Below the pieces are notes generated by a model, which was not told the DNA's origin, searched no databases, and saw nothing but the letters and a program-made list of their open reading frames with translations. This document shows, piece after piece, positions 5,547 through 23,825 of a stretch of DNA of 23,993 bases. Within the stretch, counting starts at the first letter, position 1. Each line of letters opens with the position of its first letter. Source of the stretch: an uncultured Synergistia bacterium (GTDB taxonomy: Bacteria; Synergistota; Synergistia; CAYRKT01); assembly GCA_964425005.1 (NCBI GenBank), contig CAYRKT010000020.1, positions 1-23,993 of the forward strand, given 5' to 3'. Position numbers and translations under genes: made by a program.

Positions 5547-5555
5547 TCGGCCCTT

Positions 5556-5597
5556 AGGGGAGGCGAAGGGGGCGCACGGCCCCTGCTCGCCTCCCCT
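5556..5597 (+). terminator. GC-rich extended stem-loop immediately after the Mo-subunit stop (no U-tract)
   Basis: An 11 bp perfect outer stem, AGGGGAGGCGA/TCGCCTCCCCT, encloses an inner 5 bp GGGGC/GCCCC stem. It is followed by GGTGTGTCGTCG rather than a T-run. It could be a weak intrinsic terminator, a processing or stability element, or an attenuator. Confidence 0.3.
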
Positions 5598-5733
5598 GGT
5601 GTGTCGTCGTATAATTTACCAAAGCTCGCCGAAGGAGGTGATGGGACGCCTCGGGTCTCTTCTAGGGAGCTTCGATTTGCACGTGTGTTTCTCATCCCAT
5701 AAGACTTTTTCGGGAAAGGGGGTTCGGTAGGAG

Positions 5734-7110
5734 ATGTCCTCCAGGAGGATAATTTACAGGGTGGACGACAAGCCTCCCCTGCCTATAATGATCCTGGCCG
5801 GCGCTCAGCACGTCCTCACCCTCTTTGGGGCCACCACGCTGGTGCCGCTGATATTCGGTCCTGCCATGGGCATGTCCCAGGAACAGATAGCCTTCTTCAT
5901 CTCCTGCGTCTACCTGGCCATGGGGGTGGCCACGCTGATCCAGACCCATCCGGTCCTGGGATCCGGGCTTCCCATAGTCCAGGGCTCCAGCTTCAGCTTC
6001 ATACCTCCTGTGATGACGGTCATAGGGATGTACAGCGCGCAGGGGCCCAACGCGATCATGCAGTATCTCGGCGGTGGGCTTATAGTCGGTGGATTGGTGC
6101 TCTCTGCCATAGGTTACAGCGGTCTCATAGGGTACGTGCGCAGGGTCATAACGCCCGTGGTCATAGGCCCGACTATAATGGCCATAGGGTTCTCCCTGGC
6201 CAAGGTGGCGGTGGAGTTCAACGCCGCCAACTACTGGCCCGCCTCGCTCCTGGTGGTGGCTCTGGTCTTCTTCTTCAGCCTGATATCTAAGAACAAGTAC
6301 TTCAACATCTTCTCGGTGATCATGGCCATATCGATCACCTATCTGATATGTCTCTTTGCCTCCCTCTCCGGGATATTCGTGCCCGGGCATCCGGCCTACA
6401 TAGACCTCTCCAACGTGGCTAAGGCCCCCTGGTTCAGGTTCACCGGCATAGCCCCCTGGGGTGCGCCCAAGTTCAGCGTGGTGGCCATAAGCGCCCTGGC
6501 GGCGGGCTTCTTCGCGGTGATGATCGAGTCCATAGGGGACTACCACTCCTGCTCCTACGCCTCTGGGCTTCCCGATCCCAGCCCCAAGACCATAAGCAGG
6601 GGGATAGGGGCGGAGGGGCTCAACTGCGCCATAGCTGGATTGCTGGGCGGCGTTGGGACCACTTCCTACACCGAGAACATAGGGCTGATAGGGATAACCG
6701 GCGTGGCCTCCAGGTGGGTCGTGCGGACTGGGGCCATAATACTGATACTCATGAGCACCATAGGGAAGCTCTCGGCCCTCATAGCCACCATACCGAGCCC
6801 GATAATAGGCGGCGCCTACATATCGCTCTTCGGCGTGATAGGAGCCCTGGGGATCCAGGTTCTCATGAGGGCCGACATGGGCAGCCAGCGAAACGTCATG
6901 ATAGTGGGCTTCGCGTTCCTCATGTCCCAGGGGCTTCCCGGATGGGTGGAGGCCAACCAGAAGCTCTTCAGCGAGCTCGGCACCCTCGGCATGATGATAT
7001 GGGCTATCCTGAAGACCCCCATGGCGGTGGCTGGCATCTCCGCCGCCATATGGGACTCCCTGATCCCGGGGACGGACAAGGAGAGGGGCATCACCCCGAG
7101 GGAGGAGTAG
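5734..7110 (+). CDS. Nucleobase:cation symporter-2 (NCS2) family xanthine/uracil/uric-acid permease
   Basis: 458 aa polytopic membrane protein. Its motifs are typical of the PbuX/UraA family (GAQHVLTLFGATTLVPLI, QGSSFSFI, ESIGDY). The stop is TAG at 7108-7110. Confidence 0.85.
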   Translation: MSSRRIIYRVDDKPPLPIMILAGAQHVLTLFGATTLVPLIFGPAMGMSQEQIAFFISCVYLAMGVATLIQTHPVLGSGLPIVQGSSFSFIPPVMTVIGMYSAQGPNAIMQYLGGGLIVGGLVLSAIGYSGLIGYVRRVITPVVIGPTIMAIGFSLAKVAVEFNAANYWPASLLVVALVFFFSLISKNKYFNIFSVIMAISITYLICLFASLSGIFVPGHPAYIDLSNVAKAPWFRFTGIAPWGAPKFSVVAISALAAGFFAVMIESIGDYHSCSYASGLPDPSPKTISRGIGAEGLNCAIAGLLGGVGTTSYTENIGLIGITGVASRWVVRTGAIILILMSTIGKLSALIATIPSPIIGGAYISLFGVIGALGIQVLMRADMGSQRNVMIVGFAFLMSQGLPGWVEANQKLFSELGTLGMMIWAILKTPMAVAGISAAIWDSLIPGTDKERGITPREE

Positions 7111-7125
7111 GCTGTCTCGTCTGGG

Positions 7126-7169
7126 CCAGGGACCGGGGCGAAGCTCCGGTCCCTGGTGGGGGCGTTTTT
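7126..7169 (+). terminator. Rho-independent terminator candidate after the permease gene
   Basis: An 11 bp perfect stem, CCAGGGACCGG...CCGGTCCCTGG (7126-7156), has an inner GGC-GAA-GCT extension. It is followed by TGGGGGCG and then TTTTT at 7165-7169. The T-run sits 8 nt after the stem. Confidence 0.5.
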
Positions 7170-7194
7170 GCAACTTAGTTGCATTATCTTGCAA
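7168..7194 (+). promoter_or_regulatory. Three direct TTGCA(A/T) repeats at about 10-11 bp spacing upstream of the MoeA-like gene
   Basis: TTGCAA occurs at 7168, TTGCAT at 7179 and TTGCAA at 7189. The repeats lie between the terminator and the SD AAGGAG (7193-7198). No canonical -10 could be aligned; they may form a promoter or an activator/repressor site. Confidence 0.3.
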
Positions 7195-7202
7195 GGAGCG
7201 AG

Positions 7203-8237
7203 GTGTGTCTTTCGGTGAAGCTCACTTCCGTGGGTTTGGAGGAAGCGGTGGGGATGTCCCTGGCCCACGATCTGACCGAGATAGACGTGGACGGAGGCTT
7301 CAAGGGGGCCAGGTTCAAGAGGGGACACGTGGTGAGGCCCGAGGACCTGGAGGTCTTGAGGAGGATGGGGAAGAGCAGGCTTTGGGTCGTCGAGCTGGAG
7401 GAGGGGGAGCTACACGAGGACGAGGCCTCTAGGGCTTTGGCCTCTGCTTTGGCGGGGGAGGGCGTCAGGGTGGAGGGTCCGGGCGAGGGCAAGTGCGGCT
7501 TCTTCGCGGAACGCTTTGGGCTTTTGGTCTACGATCCGTCCTCGGTGGACGCGATCAACGCCTTCGGCGTATGGGCCCTGGTTCTGCTTCCTCCCTTCGT
7601 ACCGGTGAGGGCGGGGGAGCTCGTGGGCTCGATCCGTCCTTTCGGATTGGTCGTGGATAGGGCCTCGTTGGAGGCGACCCTGTCGGTCGTCTCTCCCCTG
7701 TCAGTTAGGGCCTTCGAGCCCCTTAGGGTAGCCCTGGTCACCACCGGCGCGGAGCTGCTCGAGGGCAGGAAGAGGGATGCCTTCAGGCCGAAGCTGGAGG
7801 AGAAGATATCCCCCCTGGGCGGCGTCTTCCTAGGACAGGAGGTGGTCGGGGACGACATCGAGGCCATCGCCTCCAGCGCCAGGTCCTTCCTGGAGAGGGG
7901 GGCAGACCTTATCATATTCACGGGCGGCATGAGCGTGGACGCAGACGATCTCACCCCTAAGGCCATATCGTCCCTGGCGGACGAGGTGTTGTTCAGGGGG
8001 GTGCCCGTGATCCCAGGCAACATGTTGATGCTGGCGAGGAGGGGTAAGGCCTACCTGGTGGGAGCCCCAGCGTGCGTGGTCTTCGAGCGCAGGACCTCCC
8101 TGGACCTGCTCCTGCTCAGGCTGTTCGCTGGGCTGCCTCCTAAGGCGGAGGAGGTAAGGCGATGGGGGGTGGGGGGGTTTTGTAGCAGGTGCGAGGCGTG
8201 CGCGTTCCCTCGCTGCTCCTTCGCCGCCAGGCCTTGA
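7203..8237 (+). CDS. MoeA-like molybdopterin-binding protein (truncated molybdopterin molybdotransferase family, lacks C-terminal domain 4)
   Basis: LRVALVTTGAELL and ADLIIFTGGMSVDADDLT match the MoeA domain-3 (MoCF biosynthesis) signatures VRVALFSTGDEL and VISSGGVSVGEADYT. The N-terminus has an MoeA-like LEEAxGxxLAxDL segment. The preferred start is GTG at 7203 after AAGGAG; the track's TTG at 7179 is also possible. The C-terminal 49 nt overlap the next gene, and the tail is Cys-rich. Confidence 0.6.
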   Translation: MCLSVKLTSVGLEEAVGMSLAHDLTEIDVDGGFKGARFKRGHVVRPEDLEVLRRMGKSRLWVVELEEGELHEDEASRALASALAGEGVRVEGPGEGKCGFFAERFGLLVYDPSSVDAINAFGVWALVLLPPFVPVRAGELVGSIRPFGLVVDRASLEATLSVVSPLSVRAFEPLRVALVTTGAELLEGRKRDAFRPKLEEKISPLGGVFLGQEVVGDDIEAIASSARSFLERGADLIIFTGGMSVDADDLTPKAISSLADEVLFRGVPVIPGNMLMLARRGKAYLVGAPACVVFERRTSLDLLLLRLFAGLPPKAEEVRRWGVGGFCSRCEACAFPRCSFAARP

Positions 8238-8665
8238 GCTGGAAGGAGGTTCTGAGGGGGCTGGGCCTCAGGTCCACGCGGCCGAGGCTCCTGGTGCTGA
8301 GCCTGCTGGAGTTGGAGGGCAGACCCATGTCCCCTAGCGAGCTGTCCTCCTTTTTAGAGGGAGCGGTGGACAGGGTCACGGTCTACAGGGTCCTGAGCAG
8401 CTTGAAGGAGGCTGGGCTCCTCCACAAGGTGGTGGGTAAGGACGGGGTTTCAAGGTTCTCCTTGAACCACCTGAGGTCCGCCAGGTGCGAGGGGGGACAT
8501 CCCCATTTCCTCTGCGAGGAGTGTGGTAGGATGTTTTGCCTTAGGAGCGAGGGCATACCTCGCGTTAGGGCGCCGCAGGGCTTTAAGGTCAGGGGCAAAC
8601 AGCTTCTTCTGTATGGTATCTGCGGTGAGTGTGGTAGGACGAAAGATTTGCGAGAGGGCAGGTGA
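8189..8665 (+). CDS. Fur family transcriptional regulator (Fur/Zur/PerR-like)
   Basis: A winged-helix N-terminus (LRSTRPRLLVLSLL...SPSELS...VDRVTVYRVLSSLKEAGLL) is followed by the metal-site pattern GHPHFLCEECG...GICGECG (H-x-H-x2-C-x2-C ... C-x2-C). The start is GTG at 8189; an in-frame TTG at 8234 is an alternative. Confidence 0.7.
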   Translation: MRGVRVPSLLLRRQALSWKEVLRGLGLRSTRPRLLVLSLLELEGRPMSPSELSSFLEGAVDRVTVYRVLSSLKEAGLLHKVVGKDGVSRFSLNHLRSARCEGGHPHFLCEECGRMFCLRSEGIPRVRAPQGFKVRGKQLLLYGICGECGRTKDLREGR

Positions 8666-8672
8666 TCCGTTC

Positions 8673-9476
8673 ATGTCCACGGCGAGGGAGGAATCGGTTT
8701 TCCTCAAGCTGGCCGAGGATCTGGCCAGAGGGCAGAAGGGTATACTGGCGATGGTGGTGAGGAGCGAGGGGTCTGCCCCCAGGAACGTGGGCGCCTGCAT
8801 GTGGATAAGGCCCGACATGTCCATAGAGGGCACCGTGGGCGGTGGCGAGCTCGAGCACAGGGTGATGCGGGAGGCCAAGGCTATGTTCGAGGAGGGCAGG
8901 CCCGAGAGCCTAATGGGGATGGATCTGGTAGAGGGTGCCTCGGGAATGCTCTGCGGAGGCAGGGTTGAGGTCTTCCTCAAGACGCTGGGATCCTCCGACG
9001 AGCTCTTGGTATTCGGTGGAGGCCACGTGGGGAGGGCCGTGGCCAAGCTGGGGGTATTCCTGGGCTTCGACGTGGTAGTTTGGGACGATCGGCCGGAGTT
9101 CTGCGACGTCTCAGAGCTGGGGGCCAGGGGCATATGCTCGCCTCTAGAGAGCTTCTTCGAACACCACCCACCGCTGAGCCCCAGGAGTTACGTCGTCATA
9201 TGCACCAGAGGGCACGCCATGGACGCGAACGTGGTGGAGATGCTCAAGGACTCAAATCCCGCCTACATAGGGATGATAGGCTCAAGGGCCAAGGTGGCCG
9301 CCCTGCGGGAGAAATTGCTGGAGAGGGGGGTCCCCAAGGAGCACCTCGACCGCATATATCAGCCCATAGGGTTGACCATCGGTGCTGAGACCCCGGAGGA
9401 GATAGCTCTGTCCATAATGGCGGAGATAGTGGCCGTGAGGAGGGGTAAGGATGTTTCCTCTCTTCGCAAGTGGTAG
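8673..9476 (+). CDS. xdhC: XdhC/CoxI family xanthine dehydrogenase accessory (Mo cofactor insertion) protein
   Basis: ATG at 8673 (MSTAREESVFLKLAEDLARGQKGILAMVV...). It carries an XdhC N-terminal domain and an XdhC Rossmann domain (LLVFGGGHVGRAVAKLG...IGMIGSRAKV). The track's 8523 start is an upstream in-frame extension. Confidence 0.85.
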   Translation: MSTAREESVFLKLAEDLARGQKGILAMVVRSEGSAPRNVGACMWIRPDMSIEGTVGGGELEHRVMREAKAMFEEGRPESLMGMDLVEGASGMLCGGRVEVFLKTLGSSDELLVFGGGHVGRAVAKLGVFLGFDVVVWDDRPEFCDVSELGARGICSPLESFFEHHPPLSPRSYVVICTRGHAMDANVVEMLKDSNPAYIGMIGSRAKVAALREKLLERGVPKEHLDRIYQPIGLTIGAETPEEIALSIMAEIVAVRRGKDVSSLRKW

Positions 9477-10197
9477 GTCGATAGCATATTCGCTTTTAGC
9501 CGCCTTGTTGCCCGCTTGCTTGCTGCCTACGGCCTCCTTCGCCGAGGTTTTGGTGGGTTCGGCCGCGGGGGTTAGACAGCTTGTGGACGAAGCGGTGGAG
9601 CATTTCAAGGACTCGAAGGGCGTTGTGGTCTCCGCGTCTTATAGCTCCTCCGGCAAGCTCTTTCAGCAGATCTTATCCGGCGCCCCCTTCGACGTGTTCG
9701 TCAGCGCTCATCCCTCCTGGGTGGACCGGCTAGAAAAGGGGGGAGTGAAGCTACTGCGCAGGGATTGGGCTGAGCTGGACACCGTGGTTTGGTCCGTCAA
9801 GGAGGGTTTCGGCAGGATCTCCTCTGTCCTTGAGGGGAAGGGCGTTTACGCCACGGTCGACCCCTCCGTTGGTCCCTCCGGCGAGATGGCCGTTAAGTTC
9901 CTTAAGGACAGGGGGGTTTACGAGGACCTGATCTCGAGGAAAAGGCTGGTCTTCCTGCCCGATACCACAAGGGTCGTGCTGGCCGTGAGATCGGGCGCTG
10001 TGGACGGAGCCCTCCTAGCGGCTGTCGCCGTCAGGTCCCTGGAGGGGGAGTCGGAGGTCCTGCCGGGTTACTCCCTGGTGGCGACGGTGGCGCTCCTCTC
10101 GCTGGAGAAGGAGGAGGCCAGGTCCTTCTTCGATTTCATGTTCTCCAAGTCCTTCAGGGTATCGCTGATAAAGCTCGGCGCGAGGCCTCTCTTCTAG
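9451..10197 (+). CDS. modA: Molybdate ABC transporter periplasmic substrate-binding protein
   Basis: ATG at 9451 after GAGGAGGGGTAAGG. It has an N-terminal signal peptide with a possible lipobox (LLPAC). The ModA-like body contains VVVSASYSSSGKLFQQILSGAPFDVFVSA. It overlaps the xdhC 3' end by 26 nt. Confidence 0.85.
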   Translation: MFPLFASGRSIAYSLLAALLPACLLPTASFAEVLVGSAAGVRQLVDEAVEHFKDSKGVVVSASYSSSGKLFQQILSGAPFDVFVSAHPSWVDRLEKGGVKLLRRDWAELDTVVWSVKEGFGRISSVLEGKGVYATVDPSVGPSGEMAVKFLKDRGVYEDLISRKRLVFLPDTTRVVLAVRSGAVDGALLAAVAVRSLEGESEVLPGYSLVATVALLSLEKEEARSFFDFMFSKSFRVSLIKLGARPLF

Positions 10198-10208
10198 GAG
10201 GGTGAGCT

Positions 10209-10853
10209 TTGGGGGAAGCTCTCTGGTTGTCCGTTAAGGTTTCGTTGGTCTCGCTTCCGGCGGTGTTCCTGGTGGGCCTCGCCTTGGGCTTCCTCTTGAG
10301 CCGGGGTCCGAGGTTTCTGGCCGTGCCGATCTCTTACGCCCTGCAGCTCGCCATGATACTTCCCCCCTCCGTCCTGGGGCTCTACTTGCTTACGGCCCTC
10401 GGCAGCGCTCCCTGGGGTATCGGGAGGAAGCTGCTCTTCTCTTACCACGCCTGTGTGCTTGCAGCCTTCGTGAGCGCTCTGCCCATAATGGTTCAGTTCT
10501 CCAGGGCGGCCTTCATGGGCATCCCAGCCTCGCTGGAGGAGGCCGCTATGGTCCTGGGCCGGCAGAGGTGGGAGGTGTTCTTCAAGGTCCTTCTACCTAT
10601 AGCCAGGCCTAAGCTCATCTTGGGCATCGCGATGGCAGGCGTCAGGGCCATGGGGGATTTCGGCCTGACCCTCACCATAGCCGGCAACATCCCCGGCAGA
10701 ACCCAGACTCTCCCCCTCTACGTCTTCAGCAGGGCCGAGGTGCTGGACATGCGGGGTGCCCATCTGGCCTCCCTGGTCTTGCTCCTTTTGGGCTTGGCTT
10801 CGGTTTTGATGTTATCTCGCCTGGAGGGCGAAAAGCGTGAGCTTCATCCTTGA
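10209..10853 (+). CDS. modB: Molybdate ABC transporter permease
   Basis: TTG start at 10209, 7 nt after AGGAGGG. It carries the ABC type-1 permease signature EEAAMVLGRQRWEVFFKVLLP with 5-6 TM segments. Confidence 0.85.
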   Translation: MGEALWLSVKVSLVSLPAVFLVGLALGFLLSRGPRFLAVPISYALQLAMILPPSVLGLYLLTALGSAPWGIGRKLLFSYHACVLAAFVSALPIMVQFSRAAFMGIPASLEEAAMVLGRQRWEVFFKVLLPIARPKLILGIAMAGVRAMGDFGLTLTIAGNIPGRTQTLPLYVFSRAEVLDMRGAHLASLVLLLLGLASVLMLSRLEGEKRELHP

Positions 10854-11937
10854 CGTGGAGGTGGAGCACCGCAAAGGTTCTTTCGCCCTCTCGGCCCGCA
10901 TGAGGGTTAGCGCCCCCATCTCGGTGGTGTTCGGTCCTAGCGGCTCCGGCAAGAGCACGCTGCTCAGGGTCTTGGCGGGTTTAGAGAGGGCTAGCGGAAG
11001 GTGCCTGATATCGCTCAAGGGCAGGGTCCTGGTGGATTCGGAAAGGGGCGTTTTCGTGGAGCCACAGAGGAGGAGTATTTCCTTGGTCTTCCAGGACCTG
11101 GCGCTCTTTCCCAACATGACCGTCCTGGAGAACCTCCTCTTCGCCCTCCCCAGGTCCGCGAGGGGGCTAAAGCGATCCACTGATCTGGCGCTGGAATGGC
11201 TCTGCAGGTTCGGGTTGAACGGTTTCGAGGACAGGTACCCGAGTCAGCTGTCCCGGGGGCAGAGGCAGCGAGTGGCCCTGGCCAGGGCGATCATGTCCGA
11301 GCCGGACCTGCTGTTGTTGGACGAGCCCTTTAGCTCCCTGGATGGCCCCATGAGGGTTAACCTCAGGAGGGAGCTGATAAAGCTGCAGAGGGAGAAGGGT
11401 ATACCCATGATCTACGTGTCCCATCACCTGGACGATGTGGTGGAGCTGGGGGAGGAATCGTTCTTCATGGAGAGCGGCAGGCTGGTGGCTGTGCTGGACA
11501 GGAGCAAGCTCTGTCGCTCCCCATCTCCGGAGTGGGGGCGGCACATCCTGGATAGCTTCGGCAACGTACTGGAGGGACTTCTCTTGCCCGGAGAGGGGGG
11601 CTATCGCTTGTTCGAGGGGGAGGGTTTCAGGTTTCTGGTCAAGGGTGGCGAGGGTTTAGGCGCCTCTTTGCTGTTCGTCCCCCCGAGCGATCTGAAGCTG
11701 ATCTACCCGGACTTACCCTTGAGCTACCCCCTGAGCTGCAACCTGGTGGAGGGGGAGATAGAGGAGGTTAGGGAGGCCTCCTCCTCTCGTTTTTTGTTGA
11801 TCAGGAGCGGTTGCAAGCTGTGGAGGGCTGAGCATCACAGGAGTAGCTACGCCAGGTTGAACCTCGGGGTGGGGAAGAGGATCCGGTTCTCTTTCATGCC
11901 TGACGGTGCCAGCGTGTTTCTGAAGGGTGGGGCTTGA
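10837..11937 (+). CDS. modC: Molybdate ABC transporter ATP-binding protein with C-terminal TOBE/Mop-like domain
   Basis: Walker A GPSGSGKST, the ABC signature LSRGQRQRVALARA and Walker B LLLLDEP are all present. A C-terminal extension of about 130 aa is typical of ModC. The start is GTG at 10837, overlapping the modB stop. Confidence 0.85.
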   Translation: MSFILDVEVEHRKGSFALSARMRVSAPISVVFGPSGSGKSTLLRVLAGLERASGRCLISLKGRVLVDSERGVFVEPQRRSISLVFQDLALFPNMTVLENLLFALPRSARGLKRSTDLALEWLCRFGLNGFEDRYPSQLSRGQRQRVALARAIMSEPDLLLLDEPFSSLDGPMRVNLRRELIKLQREKGIPMIYVSHHLDDVVELGEESFFMESGRLVAVLDRSKLCRSPSPEWGRHILDSFGNVLEGLLLPGEGGYRLFEGEGFRFLVKGGEGLGASLLFVPPSDLKLIYPDLPLSYPLSCNLVEGEIEEVREASSSRFLLIRSGCKLWRAEHHRSSYARLNLGVGKRIRFSFMPDGASVFLKGGA

Positions 11938-13012
11938 GTTGAGGTTCGGCGCGATAGTGCTGGCCGCGGGTGCGGGCAGGAGATTAGGGACGCCCAAGGC
12001 CCTGGCCCAGCTGGGCGGGGAGAGCTTCCTCGAGAGGGCGGTTAAGGCCCTCAGGGGTGGGGGCGTCTCGAAGATCCTGGTGGTCGGCGGTTGCTCCTTC
12101 GACGAGGTCGAGAGAGGGGCCTCGAGGCTAGGCGTTTCGGTGGTCTTCAACCCTAACTGGGAGGGGGATATGTTCTCCTCGGTTAAAGTTGGGGTGGGAG
12201 CGATGGGGGATGAGGTCGACGCCTTCTTCGTCCTGCCCGTGGATCATCCCTTGGTTAGGCCCTGCACCATCAGGTCTCTGGCGCTCGCCTGGAGGGGAAG
12301 GCCTCTGTACCTGGTCCCCACCTTCGCGGGCAGAAGAGGTCACCCCCCGCTCATCTCCTCCTCCCTAAAGCTTTACCTCCTGGAGCACGAGGGAGAAGGC
12401 GGCTTGTCGGCCTTTCTGCGGCGTTTCGAGGGAAGGGAGGTCCCCACCTGGGACAAGGGCGTGGTGATGGGCGTCAACTCGAAGGAGGATCTGCGCGAGG
12501 CTCAGAGGATGTTGGGGAGGGCCAATAGACCGACCGAGGAGGAGTGCCTCGAGCTGCTCTCGCTCCTTGGGGCTTCGGATAGGATAGTGAGGCATTGTCT
12601 AAAGGTCAAAGAGGTCGCCATGGGGATAGCCCGTTTCGTGGAGGGCGTGGACCTGGACCTCCTGGAGAGCGCCTCCCTGCTCCATGACCTGGCGAGGGGT
12701 AGGAGCAGGCACGACGCGTTGGCCCATCGTTTCCTCCGTTGCCTCGGTTTGGTTGAGGTGGCAGAGGTCGTCCTGCGCCACATGGAGCTGCTCGATCCGG
12801 GATCCTCCTCCTGGGAACAGAAGATACTGTTTCTGGCCGATAAGCTGGTGGTGGAGGACGAGCTGGTTGGCCTGGAGGCGCGCCTCCATAGGGCCCTCTC
12901 CAGGGTCGGCGACGCGGAGGGCTTGGCATCTGCTCGAAGGCGAATCGGCCAGGCCGAGGCGATCCTCGAGGAGCTCAGGTCTAGGGGTTTCGACCTCGGG
13001 GCGCTCCTGTGA
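11927..13012 (+). CDS. MobA/MocA-like molybdenum cofactor nucleotidyltransferase fused to a C-terminal HD phosphohydrolase domain
   Basis: The N-terminus AIVLAAGAGRRLGTPKALAQLGG...LPVDHPLV is a MobA-like NTP-transferase fold, probably a MocA-type cytidylyltransferase for the MCD cofactor of xanthine-dehydrogenase-family enzymes. The C-terminal half carries an HD motif (LLHDLAR...H...D). The start is GTG at 11927, overlapping the modC stop; TTG at 11939 is an alternative. Confidence 0.8.
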   Translation: MGLELRFGAIVLAAGAGRRLGTPKALAQLGGESFLERAVKALRGGGVSKILVVGGCSFDEVERGASRLGVSVVFNPNWEGDMFSSVKVGVGAMGDEVDAFFVLPVDHPLVRPCTIRSLALAWRGRPLYLVPTFAGRRGHPPLISSSLKLYLLEHEGEGGLSAFLRRFEGREVPTWDKGVVMGVNSKEDLREAQRMLGRANRPTEEECLELLSLLGASDRIVRHCLKVKEVAMGIARFVEGVDLDLLESASLLHDLARGRSRHDALAHRFLRCLGLVEVAEVVLRHMELLDPGSSSWEQKILFLADKLVVEDELVGLEARLHRALSRVGDAEGLASARRRIGQAEAILEELRSRGFDLGALL

Positions 13013-13066: not shown

Positions 13067-13852
13067 TCACTCGAACAGGACTATGGCGTCGGGGTTAGCC
13101 ACGTGGAAGGTGAAGGTCTCCGTGAAGTAGAGGTGGACCTCCGTCTCGGAGCTGCAACAGTAGCCTATGGTCACGTCCTGCCCCAGCACGATCCTCATGT
13201 TCTCGCTGGAGGGCGATAGGAGGATGCCCTTCTCCAACCTGGGGCAGAGGACGACCTCCGAGACCCCCGCGTCCTCCGCCAGCTCCATGAGGCTCTCCGT
13301 GCTCTTGGAGAAGGCCTCAGCCCACAGGGCTGGGTTGACCACCAAGACGTATGGCCCCTTGACCCCCTTGGATATCATAGCGCCCATCGCCTTGAACAGC
13401 TGTCTGGTCAAGCTCTGAGGGGTTCCCTCTATGGGCATCCTGACCGGGGCTAACCTCTCGAGGCCCGCTATGCAGGCCTCGTCCAGCCCCTTCAATATGG
13501 CCCTGTCCTCGAACTCCGCCAGCTCCAGCGCAGCCCTCTCCATGGAGGAGAAGTCGACCACGAAGTTACCCCTGTAGAGGTTGTCCAGCTCCCAGAGGCT
13601 CAGCTTGAAGGGCGCCCTCACCTCCACCAGAGGGAGGACGGCCCGAACGCCCCAACCCAGGGCATCCGGTGGGTTCTTGAGGTTGTTCAGGCTTCCCAGC
13701 GGGTAGGCGTTGTAGTCGAAGCCGTAGGGGCCCTCGACCTCCAGGAATTGCCTGCAGAAGAGGTTGCTCGTCAGTACCTCCCTGGCCCTTGACTCTATCT
13801 CCGCCCAGCCGCGCTCCCCTATGGGGGCTAGCTCTCTCCTGAAGAGGTCCAT
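13067..13852 (-). CDS. Family 1 encapsulin nanocompartment shell protein (HK97-fold, linocin M18-like)
   Basis: The start is at the internal Met MDLFRRELAPIG (ATG at 13852, SD AGGAGGTGA upstream). The sequence matches remembered Thermotoga maritima encapsulin blocks closely: LWELDNLYRGNFVVDFSSMERAALELAEFEDRAILKG, GPYVLVVNPALW, LGQDVTIGY and YFTETFTFHVANPDAIVLFE. The track's longer 314 aa frame is an upstream extension. Confidence 0.9.
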   Translation of the reverse strand: MDLFRRELAPIGERGWAEIESRAREVLTSNLFCRQFLEVEGPYGFDYNAYPLGSLNNLKNPPDALGWGVRAVLPLVEVRAPFKLSLWELDNLYRGNFVVDFSSMERAALELAEFEDRAILKGLDEACIAGLERLAPVRMPIEGTPQSLTRQLFKAMGAMISKGVKGPYVLVVNPALWAEAFSKSTESLMELAEDAGVSEVVLCPRLEKGILLSPSSENMRIVLGQDVTIGYCCSSETEVHLYFTETFTFHVANPDAIVLFE

Positions 13853-13866
13853 GTGCCCTTCACCTC

Positions 13867-14208
13867 CTAGCGCTTGATCTTGCCTATGCCGAGCCCAGAG
13901 GGAGAGCTGGAACTGCCTTGGGAGCCCTCCTCTATGGCCAGCAGATCTCCTTCGGTGAAGAGATAGGTCCTGAGCGCCTTGTCCCAACCTGGCATGTGGC
14001 GCCTGAGCCACTCCAGAAGCATCGCGGCGTGCTCCATCTCCTCCTCCTTGTTGTGCCTGACTACCCCCTTTATCGTGGGGTCAGAGGTAGTGGCCTCCCT
14101 CTGGTGATACCAGGAGACGGCTTCGATCTCCTCCTTGAGGCTGGTGAGCGCCCTGACGTAGTCCACGTCCTCCTTGGACATCATCTCCGCGGGGTAGTGG
14201 AGATCCAT
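13867..14208 (-). CDS. Encapsulated ferritin-like protein (EncFtn/Flp cargo) with C-terminal encapsulin targeting peptide
   Basis: The EncFtn core motifs are present: EEIEAVSWYHQR...HNKEEEMEHAAMLLEWLRR...LRTYLFTEG. The C-terminus ends in a Gly/Ser linker plus GLGIGKIKR, which resembles the family-1 cargo-loading peptide (GSLxIGSLK-like). It sits 14 nt upstream of the shell gene on the same strand. Confidence 0.85.
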   Translation of the reverse strand: MDLHYPAEMMSKEDVDYVRALTSLKEEIEAVSWYHQREATTSDPTIKGVVRHNKEEEMEHAAMLLEWLRRHMPGWDKALRTYLFTEGDLLAIEEGSQGSSSSPSGLGIGKIKR

Positions 14209-14239
14209 CAGCTCTTTTCCCCCTTTCTTAGAGTTTTTG

Positions 14240-14258
14240 ACGGATCCGTTGTTATAAT
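14240..14258 (+). promoter_or_regulatory. Extended -10 promoter candidate (TGtTATAAT) for the GGDEF gene
   Basis: GTTGTTATAATTT lies in the 95 bp divergent intergenic region. TTGACG sits upstream with a short (10 nt) spacer, so the promoter is probably dependent on the extended -10. Confidence 0.35.
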
Positions 14259-14270
14259 TTTAGCACAGGT
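14250..14270 (-). promoter_or_regulatory. Extended -10 promoter candidate (TGcTAAAAT on - strand) for the EncFtn-encapsulin operon
   Basis: The reverse complement of 14250-14262 reads TGTGCTAAAATTA. A TTCAAA -35-like element lies about 18 nt upstream on the - strand. The pair is divergent and partly overlapping with the + strand candidate. Confidence 0.3.
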
Positions 14271-14303
14271 TCGATCTCCGGTTTTGAAACGGGGGCAAGG
14301 GAT

Positions 14304-15563
14304 TTGAGGAGATGGATCTACCTGGGGGCGATGGTCCTCGCGCTCTGGGGCGTATCCATGAAGAACTTCCTTTTCTTTCACACGGCGGTGGAGTTCATGG
14401 CGATATTCACCGCCTTCTTCATCGCCCTCTTGGGTTTGTCCACCCGATCCTTCGCCAAGAACAAGCTCTTCGCCAAGCTGGGAAGCCTCTACCTCTTCGT
14501 CGGCGTGGTGGACTTCTTCCACACCCTGGCCTTCAAGGGGATGGGGGTCTTCCCTCATTTCACGGCGAACGAGCCCACCCAGCTGTGGATATTGGGCAGG
14601 TCCGTCGAGGTCTTGGGGCTCCTCCTCTTGTTCGCCGCGCCGAACCTATCCCTCGAGTCAGCGTCGGTGGCCTTCGCCCTCTCGTCGGCGCTGGGGGTCT
14701 GGTCGGTGTTCGAGGGGGTCTTTCCCGACTGCTTCGTCGAGGGGGAGGGACTCACCACCTTCAAGGTGGTCTCCGAGTACGCCCTCGTGGCGGTGGTGGT
14801 ACTCCTCCTCGCCAGGCTAAAGAGCTCCGAGGAGGCTGAGCTGGTGGAGTTCAGGGGGACCCTCTTTCCTGCCCTCCTCTTCACCGCCCTGGCCGAGCTC
14901 TCCTTCACCCTCTACGAGGACGTGTACGGTTTCTACATAGTGGTGGGTCACCTTTTCAGGTTCCTCTCCTACTACACGGTGTTCGAGGGGCTCCTGCTGC
15001 AGGCTCTGCTTAACCCCGTCAGGGTGCTCTCCTCTCAGCTTCTGGATGAGAAGAGGCGTTACGAAGTCCTGGCCTACCTGGACCAGCTCACGGGCCTTGA
15101 AAACAGGCACTTCTTTAACAGGTGGGTTGAGGAGATGGAAAAAGACCCGTCCACCTTCGAGAGGAACCTGCCCGTGGCCCTGGTCCTCCTGGACGTGGAC
15201 GGCTTCAAGAGCATAAACGACACCTATGGGCACGTCCAGGGGGATGCCGTCTTGGCGTTCGTGGGGAGGTGCATCAGGTCCTCCGTGAGGAGGGGGGATT
15301 TGGCCGTGAGGTTCGGCGGCGACGAGTTCTTGCTGGTCCTGCCTAACTGCTCCGAGGAGCAGGCCCTCGAAGTGGTGGTGAGGATCCAGAGCGACATAAG
15401 GGCGAAGAACTCCTTCCCCCACGCCATCTCCCTGAGCTTCGGCGTGGCCTCCCTCGCGAGCAGCGACTGCGGGAAGCTCAGGGACGCGCTGATCGCCGCC
15501 GACAAAGCCCTCTACGAGATGAAGCGCAGCAAGGGGTGGGTCCCCCGCGTCAGAACCGGCTAA
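14304..15563 (+). CDS. Membrane-anchored GGDEF-domain diguanylate cyclase with N-terminal multi-TM sensor domain
   Basis: The N-terminal roughly 230 aa are hydrophobic with 6-7 predicted TM helices. The C-terminal GGDEF domain has an intact active site (RFGGDEFLL) and an upstream RxxD-like region. The start is TTG at 14304 or ATG at 14331. Confidence 0.8.
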   Translation: MRRWIYLGAMVLALWGVSMKNFLFFHTAVEFMAIFTAFFIALLGLSTRSFAKNKLFAKLGSLYLFVGVVDFFHTLAFKGMGVFPHFTANEPTQLWILGRSVEVLGLLLLFAAPNLSLESASVAFALSSALGVWSVFEGVFPDCFVEGEGLTTFKVVSEYALVAVVVLLLARLKSSEEAELVEFRGTLFPALLFTALAELSFTLYEDVYGFYIVVGHLFRFLSYYTVFEGLLLQALLNPVRVLSSQLLDEKRRYEVLAYLDQLTGLENRHFFNRWVEEMEKDPSTFERNLPVALVLLDVDGFKSINDTYGHVQGDAVLAFVGRCIRSSVRRGDLAVRFGGDEFLLVLPNCSEEQALEVVVRIQSDIRAKNSFPHAISLSFGVASLASSDCGKLRDALIAADKALYEMKRSKGWVPRVRTG

Positions 15564-16026
15564 ACGCCCTCTTTGCCCCCTCGACGCCCAGAGCTCCGAT
15601 CAGGGCCAGGCTCAGCGCGGCTGTGAGCTGGTCCGCTAGCCCTCCCGTCCTGAAGAGCCTGAGCCCCACCCTCCTGTTCGAGAGGACGGAGAGCTTGATG
15701 CCGCCCTTGGTCAGGCTGTCCAGGAAAAGGTGGGAGAGGTATCCGAGCGAAACGGCTAGCCCATGCCAGAGGCCCAGGATCAGCGCCGATGCCAGGGAGA
15801 TCGAGAGGGCGAAGTCCAGGGAGTGGCTTAGGCCCCTGTGCCCGAACATCAGGTTGAGCGCCCTGGAGAGCCTGGGGAATTTCCTCCCCACCTTGGTCGC
15901 CGTGCTGTCCAGGTCGGGGAGCAAAGAAGAGATGACGGCGAGCGACAGGAAGAAAAGGTCCTGAGCTGCGCCCTTCACCGAGACGGCGAGGGCCAGCCCG
16001 AAGAGCAGGTGCGTTCTCCCGGTCAT
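15550..16026 (-). CDS. DUF457/YdjM-like membrane-bound metal-dependent hydrolase
   Basis: The start is at the internal Met MTGRTHLLFGLALA (ATG at 16026, SD GAGGGGA 9 nt upstream). Taking the track's 16086 start would overlap msrBA. The protein has a conserved His-rich N-terminus and multiple TM segments. Confidence 0.7.
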   Translation of the reverse strand: MTGRTHLLFGLALAVSVKGAAQDLFFLSLAVISSLLPDLDSTATKVGRKFPRLSRALNLMFGHRGLSHSLDFALSISLASALILGLWHGLAVSLGYLSHLFLDSLTKGGIKLSVLSNRRVGLRLFRTGGLADQLTAALSLALIGALGVEGAKRAFSRF

Positions 16027-16058
16027 GGTCTGATGTCCCCTCGGCCTGATGATTTCCT

Positions 16059-16997
16059 CTAGAAGACCTTTCTCCAGCGATGGCAATAAGGGGCCTCGCC
16101 GGTCTTATCGTAGTAATCCTGGTGGTAATCCTCCGCCAGGTAAAAGGTGGATGCCTCCCTCAGCTGGGTCGCCACCTTGTGCCCCATCTCCTTTAGCCTC
16201 TGGATCAACCTCTCGGCGACCTCCCTTTGCTCCTCGTCGGTGTAGAATATGGCGCTGAGGTACTGGGGACCGATGTCCGGACCCTGCCCGTCCTCCTGCG
16301 AGAAGTCGTGGATCTCGAAGAAATACCTCAAGATCTCCTCGACGGGCTTGTCCCCCTGGTAGATTACCTCCACAGTCTCCAGGTGGCCCGTCCTGCCGGT
16401 GCAGACCATCTTGTAGGTGGGGTTGGGGACGTGTCCGCCCATGTAGCCCACCCTGGTGTCCACCACGTAGGGGTGTCTTTTCATCAGGTGCTCCACGCCC
16501 CAGAAACATCCTCCCGCGAGGAATATCCTGTTTATCCTCGGCCTCTCCCCCTGCGGCAGGAAGCGCATGGACGCGGAGTTTACGCAGTGCCTTACGTTCT
16601 TAGGGGTAAAACCCTCCCCCTCGAAGACGTGGCCCAGGTGTGCCCCGCAGTAGGCGCAGGATATCTCGGTCCTAACGCCGTCCGGATCGGGGGATCTCCT
16701 TACAGCTCCCGGGATCTCGTCGTCGAAGCTGGGCCAACCGCAGCCGGAGTGGAACTTGTCCTCGCTTCGATATAGGGGTATCCCGCAGTTGTTGCATACG
16801 TAGATGCCCTTCTCGAAGTGGTCCACGTACTTGCCGGTGAAGGGCCTTTCGGTTCCCCTCTCGAACATCACCCATCTCTCCAGGTCGCTCAAGTCGTCCC
16901 TGAAGGGCTTTACCTTCAACGGAGCCACCTCCTCTCCCGCGGCGCACCACGCCATCGCCGCCGAAATCGAGATCACCAGGACGGCGAGCGCTCTCAT
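16059..16997 (-). CDS. msrAB: Secreted bifunctional peptide-methionine sulfoxide reductase (MsrB-MsrA fusion) with signal peptide
   Basis: An N-terminal signal peptide ([21 protein letters not shown]) is followed by an MsrB/SelR domain (CNNCGIPLY...CGWPSF...HLGHVF, Zn-binding CxxC pairs). The MsrA domain ([10 protein letters not shown]) comes after it. There is a 4 nt overlap with purE. Confidence 0.9.
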
Positions 16998-17509
16998 CGC
17001 CCCATCTCCTCCAGGTATGAGTTTGCCCCCATCTCCTCGAGCTTCCTGGCTTTGGCCTCCACCGAGAGCCTCTCCTCCGCCATCCTCTCCCTCACCCTGT
17101 TCGCCACCTCCGGATGCTTGATCCCCAGGATCCTGGCGGCCAAAAGCGCTGCGTTCTTGGCGCCGTCTATGGCCACGGTGGCCACCGGTACCCCGAAGGG
17201 CATCTGGACGATGGAAAGGAGGGAGTCTAGCCCGTTCAGGGACCTGCTCCTGATGGGCACCCCTATGACCGGAAGGTGGGTGAGGGAAGCGGTCATGCCC
17301 GGCAGATGGGCGGCTCCTCCCGCACCCGCTATTATCACCTCTATTCCCCTCTCGTGGGCGGTCTTGGCGTACTCGAACATCCTCTCGGGCGTCCTGTGGG
17401 CCGAGACCACGGTGATCTCATAGGGTATCCCCAGCTCCTCCAGGACTTCGGCTGCCTGCGCCATTACCGGAAGGTCCGAGTCGCTGCCCATTATTATGCC
17501 GACCTTCAT
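16994..17509 (-). CDS. purE: N5-carboxyaminoimidazole ribonucleotide mutase
   Basis: [16 protein letters not shown]...[17 protein letters not shown]...VIGVPI contains the classic PurE motifs. Confidence 0.9.
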
Positions 17510-18624
17510 CTGCTGACGCTCCCCTTGACCTTCAGGGTCCTTCTAACCCTCTCGAGCTTTTCCTCCAGCTCCTCGTAGGTCTCAGCTAATACGGTCACGT
17601 GCCCCATCTTTCGGAAGGGAAAGACCTCCTTCTTGCCGTAGATGTGAACGTAGACCCCCTCCATCGAGAGGACCTCCTCCAGGCCGACGAAGAGGGGTTT
17701 GCCGTAGTGCCCTGGTTCGCTCACCAGGTTCCAGGTGGCGGCCAGGCTCGTCGTCCTGGGTGATCCCAGAGGCCATCCGCAGCACACCCTCACGAGTTGC
17801 TCGAACTGGCTGCAGAGGCAGGCCTCTATCGTGTAGTGCCCCGAGTTGTGCGGTCTGGGCGCTAGCTCGTTGAGCAAAACCCTCCCCCTTCTGTCCAAAA
17901 ATAGCTCGACTCCGAAGACCCCCACGCCCCTGAGGGCCTCCACCGACCTCCTAGCTATCCCCTCGGCCTCAGAGGCTATCTCGCTGCTCACCCTGGCTGG
18001 AGCCACGAGGGTGTTCATGAGCTTGAACCTGTCGTCGAAGGTCATCTCCACCGCAGGGTATACGGCGCAACTTCCGCCCTCGTCCCTTACGACTATCACC
18101 GCGAGCTCTTTGTCTATCTCCACGAACTCCTCCGCGTAGGAAGGCCCCTTTATAGCCCTCTCCAGGTCGGAGACCTCCCTCATCACCACGACGCCTCTGC
18201 CGTCATAGCCGCCCTTCCTCGACTTCTGCACCAGCGGCAGGCGATCCCTCAGGTCCTCCTCTGATCTCACCTCCCAGAAGGAGGGCATGGGTATTCCCGC
18301 CTCCCTCAGCACCGTCTTCTGGACTAACTTGTCCTGTATGATCTCCACCGCCTCCGGGTTTGGGACGACCCTTAAGCTCTCGGAGAGCTTCCTCAGCCCC
18401 TGGGGGCTGACGTTCTCGACGTCTATCGTTACGACGTCGCAGCCGCGGGCGAAGGAGAGCACGTCCCTCTCCGAGTCGACCCTGCCCAGCTGTTGTTCGG
18501 CCACAGCGGAGGCAGGACAGCCAGGAGTGTGGTCCAGCACCCTCACCCTCACCCCCATTCTCTGTGCCTCCAGGGCGGTCATCTTGGCCAGCTGGCCTCC
18601 GCCGAGAACGCCTATGGTCTTCAA
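17506..18624 (-). CDS. purK: N5-carboxyaminoimidazole ribonucleotide synthase
   Basis: An ATP-grasp protein: [15 protein letters not shown]...[17 protein letters not shown]...[11 protein letters not shown]. It has 4 nt overlaps with both neighbours. Confidence 0.9.
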
Positions 18625-19325
18625 TCCCCCTCTACCTCCTCCCGGATTTCAGGATGTTCCGCGAACTCGGTCATGTGCCTCCTGTACCTCAAGGGGACCT
18701 TGGACAGCTGAAGCCGTCTGTTCTCCCTCTCCTCCACGGCAACGCTGTGAAAGTAGCTCCTCCAGAGCCTCTGGAACAGGTTCTCTCCCTCAGAGGGCTT
18801 GAGCCCGGAGGCTTCCACCTCGACCATGGCGAATCGTCCGTCCTGTACCAGTACGGCTAGCCCCCTCCTCGTGTCGTGGATCAGCAACCTCTCGGACCTC
18901 ATGCGCCTGGCGAAGTGATAGCTGACGGGAGGGAGGACCTGATACCTGGGCTCGAAGGCCCCATACAGCAGGCCACAACCCATCTCCCTGAACCTGAGGA
19001 AGCCCTTGAACCTGTGGGCCTCCCTCTTCACTGCCCTGGAGACCTCGACCACGCGCCCGAAGATGTGGTGCAGCGGGTCGAAGAGGCGATGAGGCTCCGA
19101 GCGAGCTAGCTTGAGGAAGGCGATGGCGACCATCTCGAAGTTCTCCTCCTCGGATAGTACGTAGTGGTAGAGCACGTCCACCGCCTCCCTGGGGAGCTCG
19201 GAGAGGAGGCCCGTCAGGTCCTCCTCGAAGAGCAGAAGCTGCACCCTCCGCAGGAAGGCGGCCAGGAAGGGCCTGGGGGAAGGCTCAAATCTGCCCAAGG
19301 GGTAAGAGGAGCTGTCCGCCCTCAT
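18621..19325 (-). CDS. TIGR03915/DUF4130-like protein, obligate partner of the DNA-modification/repair radical SAM protein (no uracil-DNA-glycosylase fusion)
   Basis: 234 aa. It sits immediately downstream of the TIGR03916-type radical SAM gene and overlaps it by 41 nt. Its size and Arg/aromatic-rich character fit the partner family; the assignment rests mainly on the conserved gene-pair context. Confidence 0.65.
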   Translation of the reverse strand: MRADSSSYPLGRFEPSPRPFLAAFLRRVQLLLFEEDLTGLLSELPREAVDVLYHYVLSEEENFEMVAIAFLKLARSEPHRLFDPLHHIFGRVVEVSRAVKREAHRFKGFLRFREMGCGLLYGAFEPRYQVLPPVSYHFARRMRSERLLIHDTRRGLAVLVQDGRFAMVEVEASGLKPSEGENLFQRLWRSYFHSVAVEERENRRLQLSKVPLRYRRHMTEFAEHPEIREEVEGD

Positions 19326-20529
19326 CTTTGGAGAACTCCTCCCTCAGGTCTTCCCAGCTCTTCGCCCCGGACGGGTATCTACCCCCCAGCGTCACGAAGG
19401 GGCGGGCTCTCCTGAGCACGACGCCCAACCTCTTGAGGTCGAGCTCCGACAGGGTCGTCCACCTCCTGGCGCTGATTATCCTCCTGGCCGAGGTGGGGCC
19501 TATCCCTGGGACGCGAAGCAGCGTCTCGTAGTCCGCCGACATCACCTCGACGGGGAACAGGTGCAGGTTCCTCAGGGCCCAGTCCAGCTTGGGGTCCAGG
19601 TCCAGGGAGAGGTTCGGCCTCTTGGCGTCGACCAGCTCGTCCAGCTCAAAGCCGTAGAACCTCATGAGCCAGTCGGCCTGGTAGAGCCTGTGCTCCCGAA
19701 GCAGCGGCGGGGCCTGGGTGGGCAAGCGGGGGTCGTGGTTCACGGGGACGTAGGCGGAGTAGTAGACCCTCCTGAGGCTCAGCCTCTCGTAGAGCCTGCG
19801 GGATAGGAGCAGGATCTCCCTGTCGCTCTCGGGGGTGGCGCCGACTATGATCTGGGTCGACTGGCCCGTGGCCGCGAACTCACCGCCCCTCTCCTCCTTG
19901 GGCAGGGACAGAAGCCTGTGCAGCGTCCTCATGTGCCCCAGTATGCGGTCGAAGTCCTTGTCCGGGGCGAGGGCCTTCAGGGAGGATTCGGTGGGTAGCT
20001 CCAGGTTGACGCTTATCCTGTCGCACCATCGGGACGCCTCCTCTACGGTGGAGGGGCTGCTGCCCGGGAGGACCTTCATGTGGATGTAGCCTCGAAAGCC
20101 CATCTCGAGCCTGAGCGTCTTGGCGGTGGCTATCATTAGCTCCATGGTGTGATCAGGGCTAACCCAAACCCCCGAACTCAGGAAGAGCCCCTCTATGTAG
20201 TTCCTCCTGTATAGCTGATAGGTCAGGTGGGCGAGCTCCTTGGGGGAGAAGGCGGTCCGAAGCACGTCGTTGCTGGCCCTGTTCGCGCAGTAAGCGCAGT
20301 CGTTCTGGCACAGGTTGGTCATGAGGACCTTTAACAGCGAAACGCATCTGCCGTCAGCGCTCCAGGAGTGGCATATGCCCCACCTGGCGGCGCTCCCCAG
20401 CTGTCCCTTGGCCCCACGACGACTCGACCCGCTCGAGGCGCAGGAGACGTCGTACTTAGCCGCCGAGGCCAGTATCGGAAGCTTCTCCTGCAGACTGAGC
20501 CTTGAGGCCACCTTGGTCAGGCTCGACAT
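19285..20529 (-). CDS. Putative DNA modification/repair radical SAM protein (TIGR03916-like) with C-terminal helix-hairpin-helix
   Basis: The N-terminus reads EKLPILASAAKYDVSC and the radical SAM cluster motif is CQNDCAYC (Cx3Cx2C). The C-terminal HhH is LRVPGIGPTSARRIISAR. The protein is 414 aa. Confidence 0.8.
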   Translation of the reverse strand: MSSLTKVASRLSLQEKLPILASAAKYDVSCASSGSSRRGAKGQLGSAARWGICHSWSADGRCVSLLKVLMTNLCQNDCAYCANRASNDVLRTAFSPKELAHLTYQLYRRNYIEGLFLSSGVWVSPDHTMELMIATAKTLRLEMGFRGYIHMKVLPGSSPSTVEEASRWCDRISVNLELPTESSLKALAPDKDFDRILGHMRTLHRLLSLPKEERGGEFAATGQSTQIIVGATPESDREILLLSRRLYERLSLRRVYYSAYVPVNHDPRLPTQAPPLLREHRLYQADWLMRFYGFELDELVDAKRPNLSLDLDPKLDWALRNLHLFPVEVMSADYETLLRVPGIGPTSARRIISARRWTTLSELDLKRLGVVLRRARPFVTLGGRYPSGAKSWEDLREEFSKDEGGQLLLPLGQI

Positions 20530-20530: not shown

Positions 20531-20547
20531 CTGTAAGTATATTACAG
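20531..20547. promoter_or_regulatory. Palindrome CTGTAA-N5-TTACAG (CTGT-N9-ACAG) abutting the radical SAM start codon; candidate operator
   Basis: CTGTAAGTATATTACAG begins 2 nt upstream of the radical SAM ATG, which spans 20529-20527 on the - strand. It has a perfect 6 bp inverted repeat and an AT-rich centre, resembling the Gram-negative LexA CTGT-N8-ACAG box with one extra base. Confidence 0.35.
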
Positions 20548-20572
20548 GTGCCGCCCTCCAGTCCATCCTAGG

Positions 20573-23474: not shown

Positions 23475-23825
23475 GGGGGCGAAAGGTTTCGACGGCGGTT
23501 CAGAGGTCAAAGGAGCGAGCCGAGTTTGTCCGGTGGCTCGACAAAAACCGGTCGCACAATAAGTGCCAACGAGAGCTACGCTCTGGCCGCTTAAGTAGCG
23601 GTCACGCCCGCGGGGGGCTAGCCGTCGGTGCCCCGTAGGGCGTCATAGGAGACGGCTGGCTCCAGGGGTCGGCCCCTGCCTCTGGAGCGAGACCCAGGGG
23701 GCTGGCTCGGGGCGGATCCTGCCCATGGGAGTCGCACCGAGCGAGATCAAAACATGGGCTACGCTCGTAGGGGCCTTTGGCCGAAGGCTAGCCGGACGGG
23801 GGTTCGATTCCCCCCGCCTCCACCA
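23475..23825 (+). ncRNA. ssrA: tmRNA (transfer-messenger RNA, SsrA)
   Basis: The 5' GGGGGCGAAAGGTTTCGACGG pairs with the 3' CGCCTCCACCA acceptor, including a G3-U wobble for Ala identity. The T-arm is GGGGGTTCGATTCCCCC. An internal tag ORF (GCC AAC GAG AGC TAC GCT CTG GCC GCT TAA) encodes ANESYALAA and ends at 23594. Length is about 351 nt. Confidence 0.9.

Follow-up and report, generated by a model that had tools for sequence, protein, structure and literature searches.

A stand-alone radical-SAM/DUF4130 gene pair of a Synergistia bacterium as a candidate DNA-directed repair enzyme

Here we describe two overlapping genes, encoding a radical S-adenosylmethionine (SAM) protein of 414 amino acids (aa; rSAM) and a DUF4130 partner subunit of 234 aa, carried by a stretch of 23,993 nucleotides (nt) from an uncultured Synergistia bacterium (contig CAYRKT010000020.1; the whole of this stretch is referred to as ‘the window’). 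On balance, we consider it probable that the pair represents the minimal, two-subunit core of a DNA-directed radical-SAM enzyme, acting in repair or damage tolerance as part of the DNA-damage response. We are led to this reading by the family membership of both proteins, a helix-hairpin-helix (HhH) region resembling those of ComEA and RuvA, SOS boxes in front of related genes, a clamp-like motif in the C-terminal tail and the fold of the partner, but also by the UdgX fusion found elsewhere in the family, the tight coupling of the two genes and the DNA-metabolism genes that neighbour some relatives.

Family assignment and architecture of the two subunits

Both open reading frames (ORFs) coincide exactly, in the ORF list of the window, with those of a preliminary description of this DNA, and share 41 nt. 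The profile searches which that description had called for, and one with Pfam Radical_SAM, all score above the curated cut-offs: the 414-aa protein matches TIGR03916 with 549 bits (E 7.5e-165; residues 13-390 against model positions 1-386 of 415; cut-off 343.5 bits) and Pfam Radical_SAM with 31.3 bits (cut-off 29.5 bits); the 234-aa protein matches PF13566 (DUF4130) with 134.3 bits (cut-off 27 bits) and TIGR03915 with 171 bits (cut-off 112.25 bits), the last over model positions 61-243 only. In alignments, all family-invariant residues are kept in both window proteins. The pair thus genuinely belongs to a family that is known and named, but uncharacterised, in its common stand-alone architecture, and the literature we found agrees with the earlier statement that no biochemical function has been assigned to it; roughly one in five bacterial genomes has been reported to carry the family (PMC4951493).

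Saying this, the copy departs from typical members on three counts: its partner is divergent and eroded at the N-terminus, it sits in a housekeeping operon, and no LexA box can be recognised. The rSAM protein is well conserved (55-62% identity); the partner, by contrast, is very divergent, its nearest non-self match being 41% identical, with just five matches at E<=1e-30 in a phmmer search of 1.84 billion cluster representatives. We favour the 234-aa reading of the partner over the TTG start called in an 89%-identical relative (locus L003), as the ATG is conserved there; a Shine-Dalgarno-like stretch, GGGAGGAG, is found 10 nt 5' of this ATG at position 19325.

The preliminary description had drawn attention to the absence of a fused uracil-DNA glycosylase (UDG) domain, and we indeed find no UDG match, either in the partner or among the 26 ORFs scanned in the window; its suggested search for a separate UDG4-like gene elsewhere in the genome was extended over the 10 kb past the window, as carried by a 66-kb contig of this organism, and likewise returned none. 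The TIGR03914 model does match the fused proteobacterial partners that served as a positive control (245-333 bits). To place the copy among its relatives we scanned one genome per species (80 loci, with rSAM proteins at most 62% identical to that of the window). A downstream DUF4130 ORF is present in 71 of 79 evaluable loci, complete and on the same strand in 68 (median 255 aa) and reaching a contig end in three more, and the rSAM and partner ORFs overlap or abut in most loci; the available DNA of seven loci shows none, such that the claim that the two families ‘always’ co-occur holds for most loci but not for all.

None of these 71 partners is fused to a UDG domain (Pfam: DUF4130, no UDG). 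The best 120 profile matches among 5.8 billion proteins carry PF13566 only, and the best 150 of the 2114 phmmer matches are 195-348 aa long, one being the window's own protein and the other 149 all stand-alone. Fusion to a family-4 UDG-like domain does occur, as had been said, but all the fused copies that we saw were proteobacterial and more distant (rSAM 47-51% identical); their partners are annotated ‘UdgX family uracil-DNA binding protein’. A stand-alone partner is therefore the rule in this branch and not special to this copy. We rejected an apparent 713-aa rSAM-DUF4130 fusion in locus L045, which is read in another frame than the rSAM ORF and is an artefact of longest-ORF calling, as well as a gene seemingly ‘missing’ from locus L088, where the strand had been mis-called on a truncated contig and the DNA is identical.

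Among 203 neighbouring ORFs, neither a recurrent third gene nor a separate UDG stands beside the stand-alone pairs; we regard the pair as an autonomous two-gene module. DNA-metabolism genes do occur sporadically as neighbours in relatives, encoding a photolyase, DinG-like helicases and S24 peptidases. In Heliobacterium chlorum (locus L016, 9622-11022) a DNA photolyase gene takes the place of DUF4130 after the rSAM gene, the promoter of which has an exact LexA box; in three Hymenobacter loci (L020, L023 and L031) an alpha/beta-hydrolase gene sits between the rSAM and DUF4130 genes.

The AlphaFold 2 model of the rSAM protein (predicted local distance difference test score, pLDDT, 82) shows a partial barrel of six strands, after which come a helical region and the HhH. 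The Cx3Cx2C motif noted at the outset is C74/C78/C81; it is invariant in 24/24 aligned homologues and was found in all 169 family sequences checked. Three further cysteines, upstream of strand 1, occupy invariant alignment columns (C30, C53, the latter followed by H54, and C62), and all four cysteine motifs occur together in 152 of the 169 sequences, as well as in the proteobacterial clade with fused partners. Their conservation suggests that C30, C53 and C62 may be ligands of an auxiliary Fe-S cluster, with the six invariant cysteines then predicting two clusters. The nearest folds are those of LipA (the top match), HydE and BioB, and not that of SplB (spore photoproduct lyase), alignment to which had been named as grounds for abandoning the assignment. 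LipA has an N-terminal auxiliary cluster.

The C-terminal HhH had also been proposed previously. Here, Pfam HHH, HHH_5 and HHH_3 match residues 328-356 slightly below their cut-offs, and a family profile searched against the PDB matches the HhH domains of ComEA (E 2e-4) and RuvA; helices are modelled at residues 334-338, 345-354, 362-367 and 372-378.

For the partner, structure comparison returns a RecJ-like DHH/DHHA1 fold, and its invariant residues exclude the DHH catalytic motifs; the model thus portrays what appears to be a catalytically decayed member of that fold. This assignment, made independently, agrees with that of a recent preprint, in which AlphaFold 3 predicts a confident rSAM-DUF4130 heterodimer (ipSAE 0.80; bioRxiv 10.64898/2026.08.19.745780). 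The N-terminal subdomain is some 20-26 residues shorter than in typical members of 250 aa: the TIGR03915 match does not extend over the N-terminal YxYDGSFxGLLT... subdomain, of which only Y8..G11-x-F13 and an LLLF remnant are kept. Other partners with a short N-terminus, of 202-224 aa, exist.

LexA boxes and a clamp-like peptide

Two features of the wider family point to DNA damage and to replication. Firstly, we searched for LexA boxes from -250 to +40 of the rSAM start in 65 loci, mostly of Firmicutes, against a background of 900 kb of flanking DNA. The exact LexA operator of Gram-positive bacteria, GAAC-N4-GTTC, occurs 18 times in 18.85 kb upstream of rSAM genes and eight times in the 900 kb of flanks, an enrichment of ~107-fold, and a box with at most one mismatch is found in 35/65 loci, often twice per promoter. 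Judging from these sites, the pair appears to be LexA-controlled in most of the sampled Firmicutes. As the clade without UDG also has LexA boxes, a role in the damage response would be independent of the UDG domain. Control of the pair by LexA or DdaA has been documented in Verrucomicrobia, Bacteroidetes, Alphaproteobacteria and Acinetobacter (PMC4951493, PMC8565304, PMC12392091).

The second feature concerns the tail that follows the HhH region, which varies in length and sequence, except for a Q-L-x-L-(F or x-L) peptide; the tail peptide of the window protein that we propose for clamp binding is EGGQLLLPLGQI. The QLLLPL motif lies in a segment of pLDDT below 50, yet Q406 and L409 stand out, with conservation of at least 90%, from a tail that otherwise defies alignment. 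The motif is matched in 82 of 120 homologues, most commonly as QLSLF (34), with QLELF in 14; a loose form is present in 103/147 tails as against 4.1 in shuffled tails (25-fold), and a strict form in 78/147 as against 0.86 (90-fold). Flavobacterial and proteobacterial rSAM proteins terminate exactly in QLSLF, QLTLF, QLALF or QLSLI, and the motif is common to the stand-alone and UdgX-fused clades. Pol II, Pol IV, Pol V and Hda bind the beta sliding clamp through a consensus of QL[SD]LF or QLxLxL, to which QLLLPL conforms, and we infer that it may serve as a putative clamp tether. We found no literature linking a radical-SAM enzyme with a clamp-binding motif.

About 65 of the 120 homologues terminate in TGEL, TGEF or SGEL, and the window protein in LGQI. 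The TGEL/TGEF end may at the same time supply the partner gene with its Shine-Dalgarno and start context (GGxGA..TGATG), or may be a motif at the protein level. A role as a Shine-Dalgarno alone fits in part, for loci in which the genes overlap by 1 nt; however, Gly is encoded there by each of its four codons, and the motif stays where the partner starts farther off.

The Synergistia locus and its surroundings

The setting in a purEK/msr operon, as previously described, is borne out by a run of overlapping genes (Table 1). A terminator scan of the operon strand returned two weak internal sites only, fewer than in shuffled sequence, and to judge by this arrangement rSAM, partner, purK, purE and msrBA look like a single operon, in which purK is a co-transcribed passenger outside the functional module. 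The same synteny is found, identically, in at least five independent metagenome contigs. The N-terminus of MsrB-MsrA is hydrophobic and resembles a signal peptide, for which reason the protein is probably exported. E. coli ydjM, a family member of which follows msrBA, is a LexA-regulated gene.

Both the -35 and -10 regions of the sigma-70-like promoter are kept in the 89%-identical relative. With the -10 so close to the ATG, and no Shine-Dalgarno visible between them, the operon mRNA is probably leaderless or near-leaderless. A perfect palindrome, CTGTAA-GTATA-TTACAG (CTGT-N9-ACAG; 20531-20547), lies over the -10 and abuts the ATG, with 0.17 such CTGT-N9-ACAG sites expected by chance in the window. 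We do not accept it as a LexA operator, given its N9 spacing in place of the N8 of the E. coli-type box and its disruption in the relative.

Table 1. Positions of the gene pair, its motifs and other features in the window
Feature	Coordinates	Strand	Basis and remarks
rSAM gene	19285..20529	minus	ATG start; 414 aa; TIGR03916
DUF4130/TIGR03915 partner subunit	18621..19325	minus	ATG start; 234 aa; no UDG/UdgX domain; shortened N-terminal subdomain
CX3CX2C motif (C74, C78, C81), radical-SAM [4Fe-4S] cluster	20287..20310	minus	alignment
C30, C53 (then H54), C62, candidate auxiliary Fe-S ligands	20344..20442	minus	invariant alignment columns; upstream of strand 1
C-terminal HhH DNA-binding region, residues ~328-378	19396..19548	minus	Pfam, family profile and model
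QLLLPL, residues 406-411, beta-sliding-clamp-binding-like motif	19297..19314	minus	disordered tail; within overlap with partner gene
Sigma-70-like promoter (-35 TGGACT, 18-nt spacer, -10 TATACT)	20536..20565	minus	-10 ends 6 nt before rSAM ATG
purK	17506..18624	minus	NF004679 388 bits, TIGR01161 347 bits; start overlaps partner stop by 4 nt
purE	16994..17509	minus	TIGR01162 233 bits; 4-nt overlap with purK
Bifunctional msrB-msrA	16059..16997	minus	NF004042 420 bits, SelR and PMSR; 4-nt overlap with purE
YdjM-family inner-membrane protein	15550-16086	minus	directly downstream of msrBA
Purine-catabolism and molybdenum cluster	45-13012		family matches
tmRNA gene	23475-23825	plus	Rfam 168.7 bits; tag peptide ANESYALAA

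Of the remainder of the window, the cluster at its start encodes an AllG-like protein, the FAD, 2Fe-2S and Mo subunits of xanthine dehydrogenase, a xanthine/uracil permease and XdhC, together with a MobA-like protein with an HD domain, a molybdate-type ABC transporter and a Fur-family regulator. We regard a 500-aa ORF at 5692-7194 (minus strand), antisense to the permease gene and matching no family, as almost certainly spurious, its frame being open because the DNA is GC-rich. At 13067-14400 an encapsulin shell gene (Linocin_M18) adjoins the gene for an EncFtn-like ferritin cargo (113 aa on related contigs), and the window also holds genes for a GGDEF protein, LptA/LptB and DUF2284. The tmRNA gene overlaps the long-ORF reading of DUF2284 by 36 nt, an overlap that a shorter, 184-aa call removes.

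Proposed function, rival explanations and known systems

Synthesising these observations, we propose a model for how the pair might act, in which we infer, from the features set out above, that DNA is the substrate, that the subunits form a complex, that the tail binds the clamp and that an auxiliary cluster is present. As in other members of its superfamily, the 414-aa subunit would use a [4Fe-4S] cluster at C74/C78/C81 to cleave SAM reductively and generate a 5'-deoxyadenosyl radical, whilst its C-terminal HhH region would grip the DNA backbone and C30, C53 and C62 would probably carry a second Fe-S cluster at the substrate site. The DUF4130 subunit may dock onto rSAM, in keeping with the published AlphaFold 3 prediction, and shape a channel for a nucleotide or a single strand. 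We suggest that the QLLLPL tail could then tether the enzyme to the beta sliding clamp, at primer-template junctions, stalled forks or gaps, where the radical would abstract a hydrogen atom from a damaged nucleotide, such that a replication-blocking lesion in a single-stranded template, beyond the reach of excision repair, might be reversed or processed. In this organism, the pair would be transcribed from the sigma-70-like, apparently leaderless promoter along with purK, purE and msrBA.

We also speculate, and here the idea is a tentative one about which we are rather doubtful, that this may amount to a new kind of repair, performed by a clamp-docked radical-SAM enzyme with two clusters, for which UdgX is an optional accessory that captures the lesion or abasic site, and which has here come to lie outside the SOS response, with constitutive leaderless expression.

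Several observations weigh against a repair function, or against particular parts of it. No Gram-positive LexA (Cheo) box is found near the window gene, although the LexA motif of the host may differ, and the right arm of the CTGT-N9-ACAG palindrome is broken in the 89%-identical relative; with no Cheo box and an unconserved palindrome, we do not extend damage induction to this organism. A transcript shared with purEK and with an MsrBA that is probably exported lends repair no support, and the eroded N-terminal subdomain of the partner possibly reflects an altered or reduced function. Within the model, pLDDT is low over the loop of residues 30-47, the auxiliary cluster being deduced from cysteine conservation only, and the QLxLF peptide could instead contact the DUF4130 partner or some other protein. 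Finally, the literature we found describes no family member that has been tested biochemically or genetically.

We weighed four other explanations, all of which were judged less probable than DNA-directed repair. The best of these, though in our view an unlikely one, is that the pair modifies DNA, placing a base or backbone mark (methylation, thiolation or a hypermodified base) for epigenetic purposes or for protection from phages or nucleases. The curated family name keeps ‘modification’ open, and the near folds LipA, BioB, MiaB and RimO insert sulfur by means of an auxiliary cluster, for which the three extra invariant cysteines might provide; Aravind and colleagues, moreover, have suggested that DUF4130 ‘might modify thymines’ (PMC3765255). 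Against this, neither protein matches a PADLOC defence model at E<=0.01, and we rejected membership of a known defence system on these grounds; the 203 neighbouring ORFs hold no recurrent restriction or modification partner, only a single C5 methylase, and the enrichment of LexA boxes and the clamp-like tail are marks of damage-response proteins and not of constitutive modification systems.

That the target is RNA, with rSAM an enzyme of RlmN/Cfr/MiaB type and DUF4130 its RNA-recognition domain, seems to us a good deal less probable still: fold matches of that type rank under LipA, HydE and BioB, the HhH region is like those of the double-stranded DNA binders ComEA and RuvA, the proteobacterial partner is fused to UdgX, a domain that binds uracil in DNA, and both LexA control and the clamp-motif tail point to DNA.

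For this organism, we consider it highly improbable that the pair shares in the metabolic tasks of its operon, acting in purine synthesis or the repair of oxidative damage and not in DNA metabolism. The 4-nt overlaps linking purK, purE and msrBA to the pair, with no convincing terminator between them, would fit such a role, as would the identical synteny of the metagenome contigs and the absence of a LexA box from the window. However, homologues of purE, purK, msr or ydjM occur within +/-8 kb in 0/80 other loci, and we rejected a functional link to these genes as a property of the family; the linkage is lineage-specific and therefore holds no functional information on the pair. Furthermore, the rSAM protein has lost none of the family-invariant residues and still carries both the HhH and the tail motif, and with a signal-peptide-like MsrBA the operon is functionally mixed in any case. 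Just as improbable is a divergent SplB-type photolesion lyase that reverses 5-thyminyl-5,6-dihydrothymine: spore photoproduct lyase is the sole characterised radical-SAM DNA-repair enzyme, SplB-like genes are SOS-regulated too and the photolyase gene lies directly downstream in Heliobacterium, but we rejected an SplB identity for the 414-aa protein, as profile-model, profile and fold comparisons found neither sequence nor close-fold similarity to SplB.

DNA-directed repair or damage tolerance therefore stays our preferred function for the pair. The window copy itself adds little to it, being a routine family member with an NCBI name already in place; the main interest lies with the family, a conserved radical-SAM system that is SOS-regulated in several phyla. 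At that level, three observations render the function more testable, namely LexA control in the clade without UDG, the clamp-like motif of the tail and the cysteine triad, and the clamp-like peptide predicts where in the cell the catalytic subunit acts. If a repair function were true, the family would constitute just the second class of radical-SAM DNA-repair enzyme, after spore photoproduct lyase.

Turning to known systems, the closest counterparts are other stand-alone pairs, such as those of Geotalea daltonii (partner Geob_0372) and Lachnospiraceae bacterium 3-1 (C806_00603/00604), in which, as in the window, an rSAM gene is followed by an overlapping partner without UDG; these share the CX3CX2C motif, the N-terminal cysteine triad, the HhH and the QLxL(F/xL) tail. 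The form with a UdgX-fused partner, proteobacterial and verrucomicrobial, is exemplified by Paracoccus denitrificans WP_011750828/WP_011750829. Proteobacterial rSAM proteins have the same cysteine triad as that of the window and end in QLALI, QLALF or QLSLI, but the fused proteobacterial partner, of ~480 aa, joins a TIGR03915 N-terminal half to a family-4-like UdgX (TIGR03914) that the window lacks.

Amongst characterised radical-SAM enzymes, LipA, BioB and HydE are the nearest in fold, at 11-16% identity to the window protein; they are without a DNA-binding domain and act on protein-bound substrates or small molecules, and the triad of the window protein is spaced C-x22-C-x8-C, as against CX4CX5C in LipA. 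SplB (PDB 4FHC) is likewise a radical-SAM enzyme that acts on DNA, from a family SOS-linked in several phyla. The SOS-related clients of the beta clamp (Pol IV/DinB, Pol V/UmuC, Pol II and Hda) are under LexA control and have a disordered C-terminal tail with a short peptide of the form QLxLF or QLxLxL, in many cases placed at the very end of the protein, all of which recurs in the rSAM family; the window rSAM, unlike Pol IV, Pol V and Pol II, is no polymerase, and its link to the clamp is a putative one.

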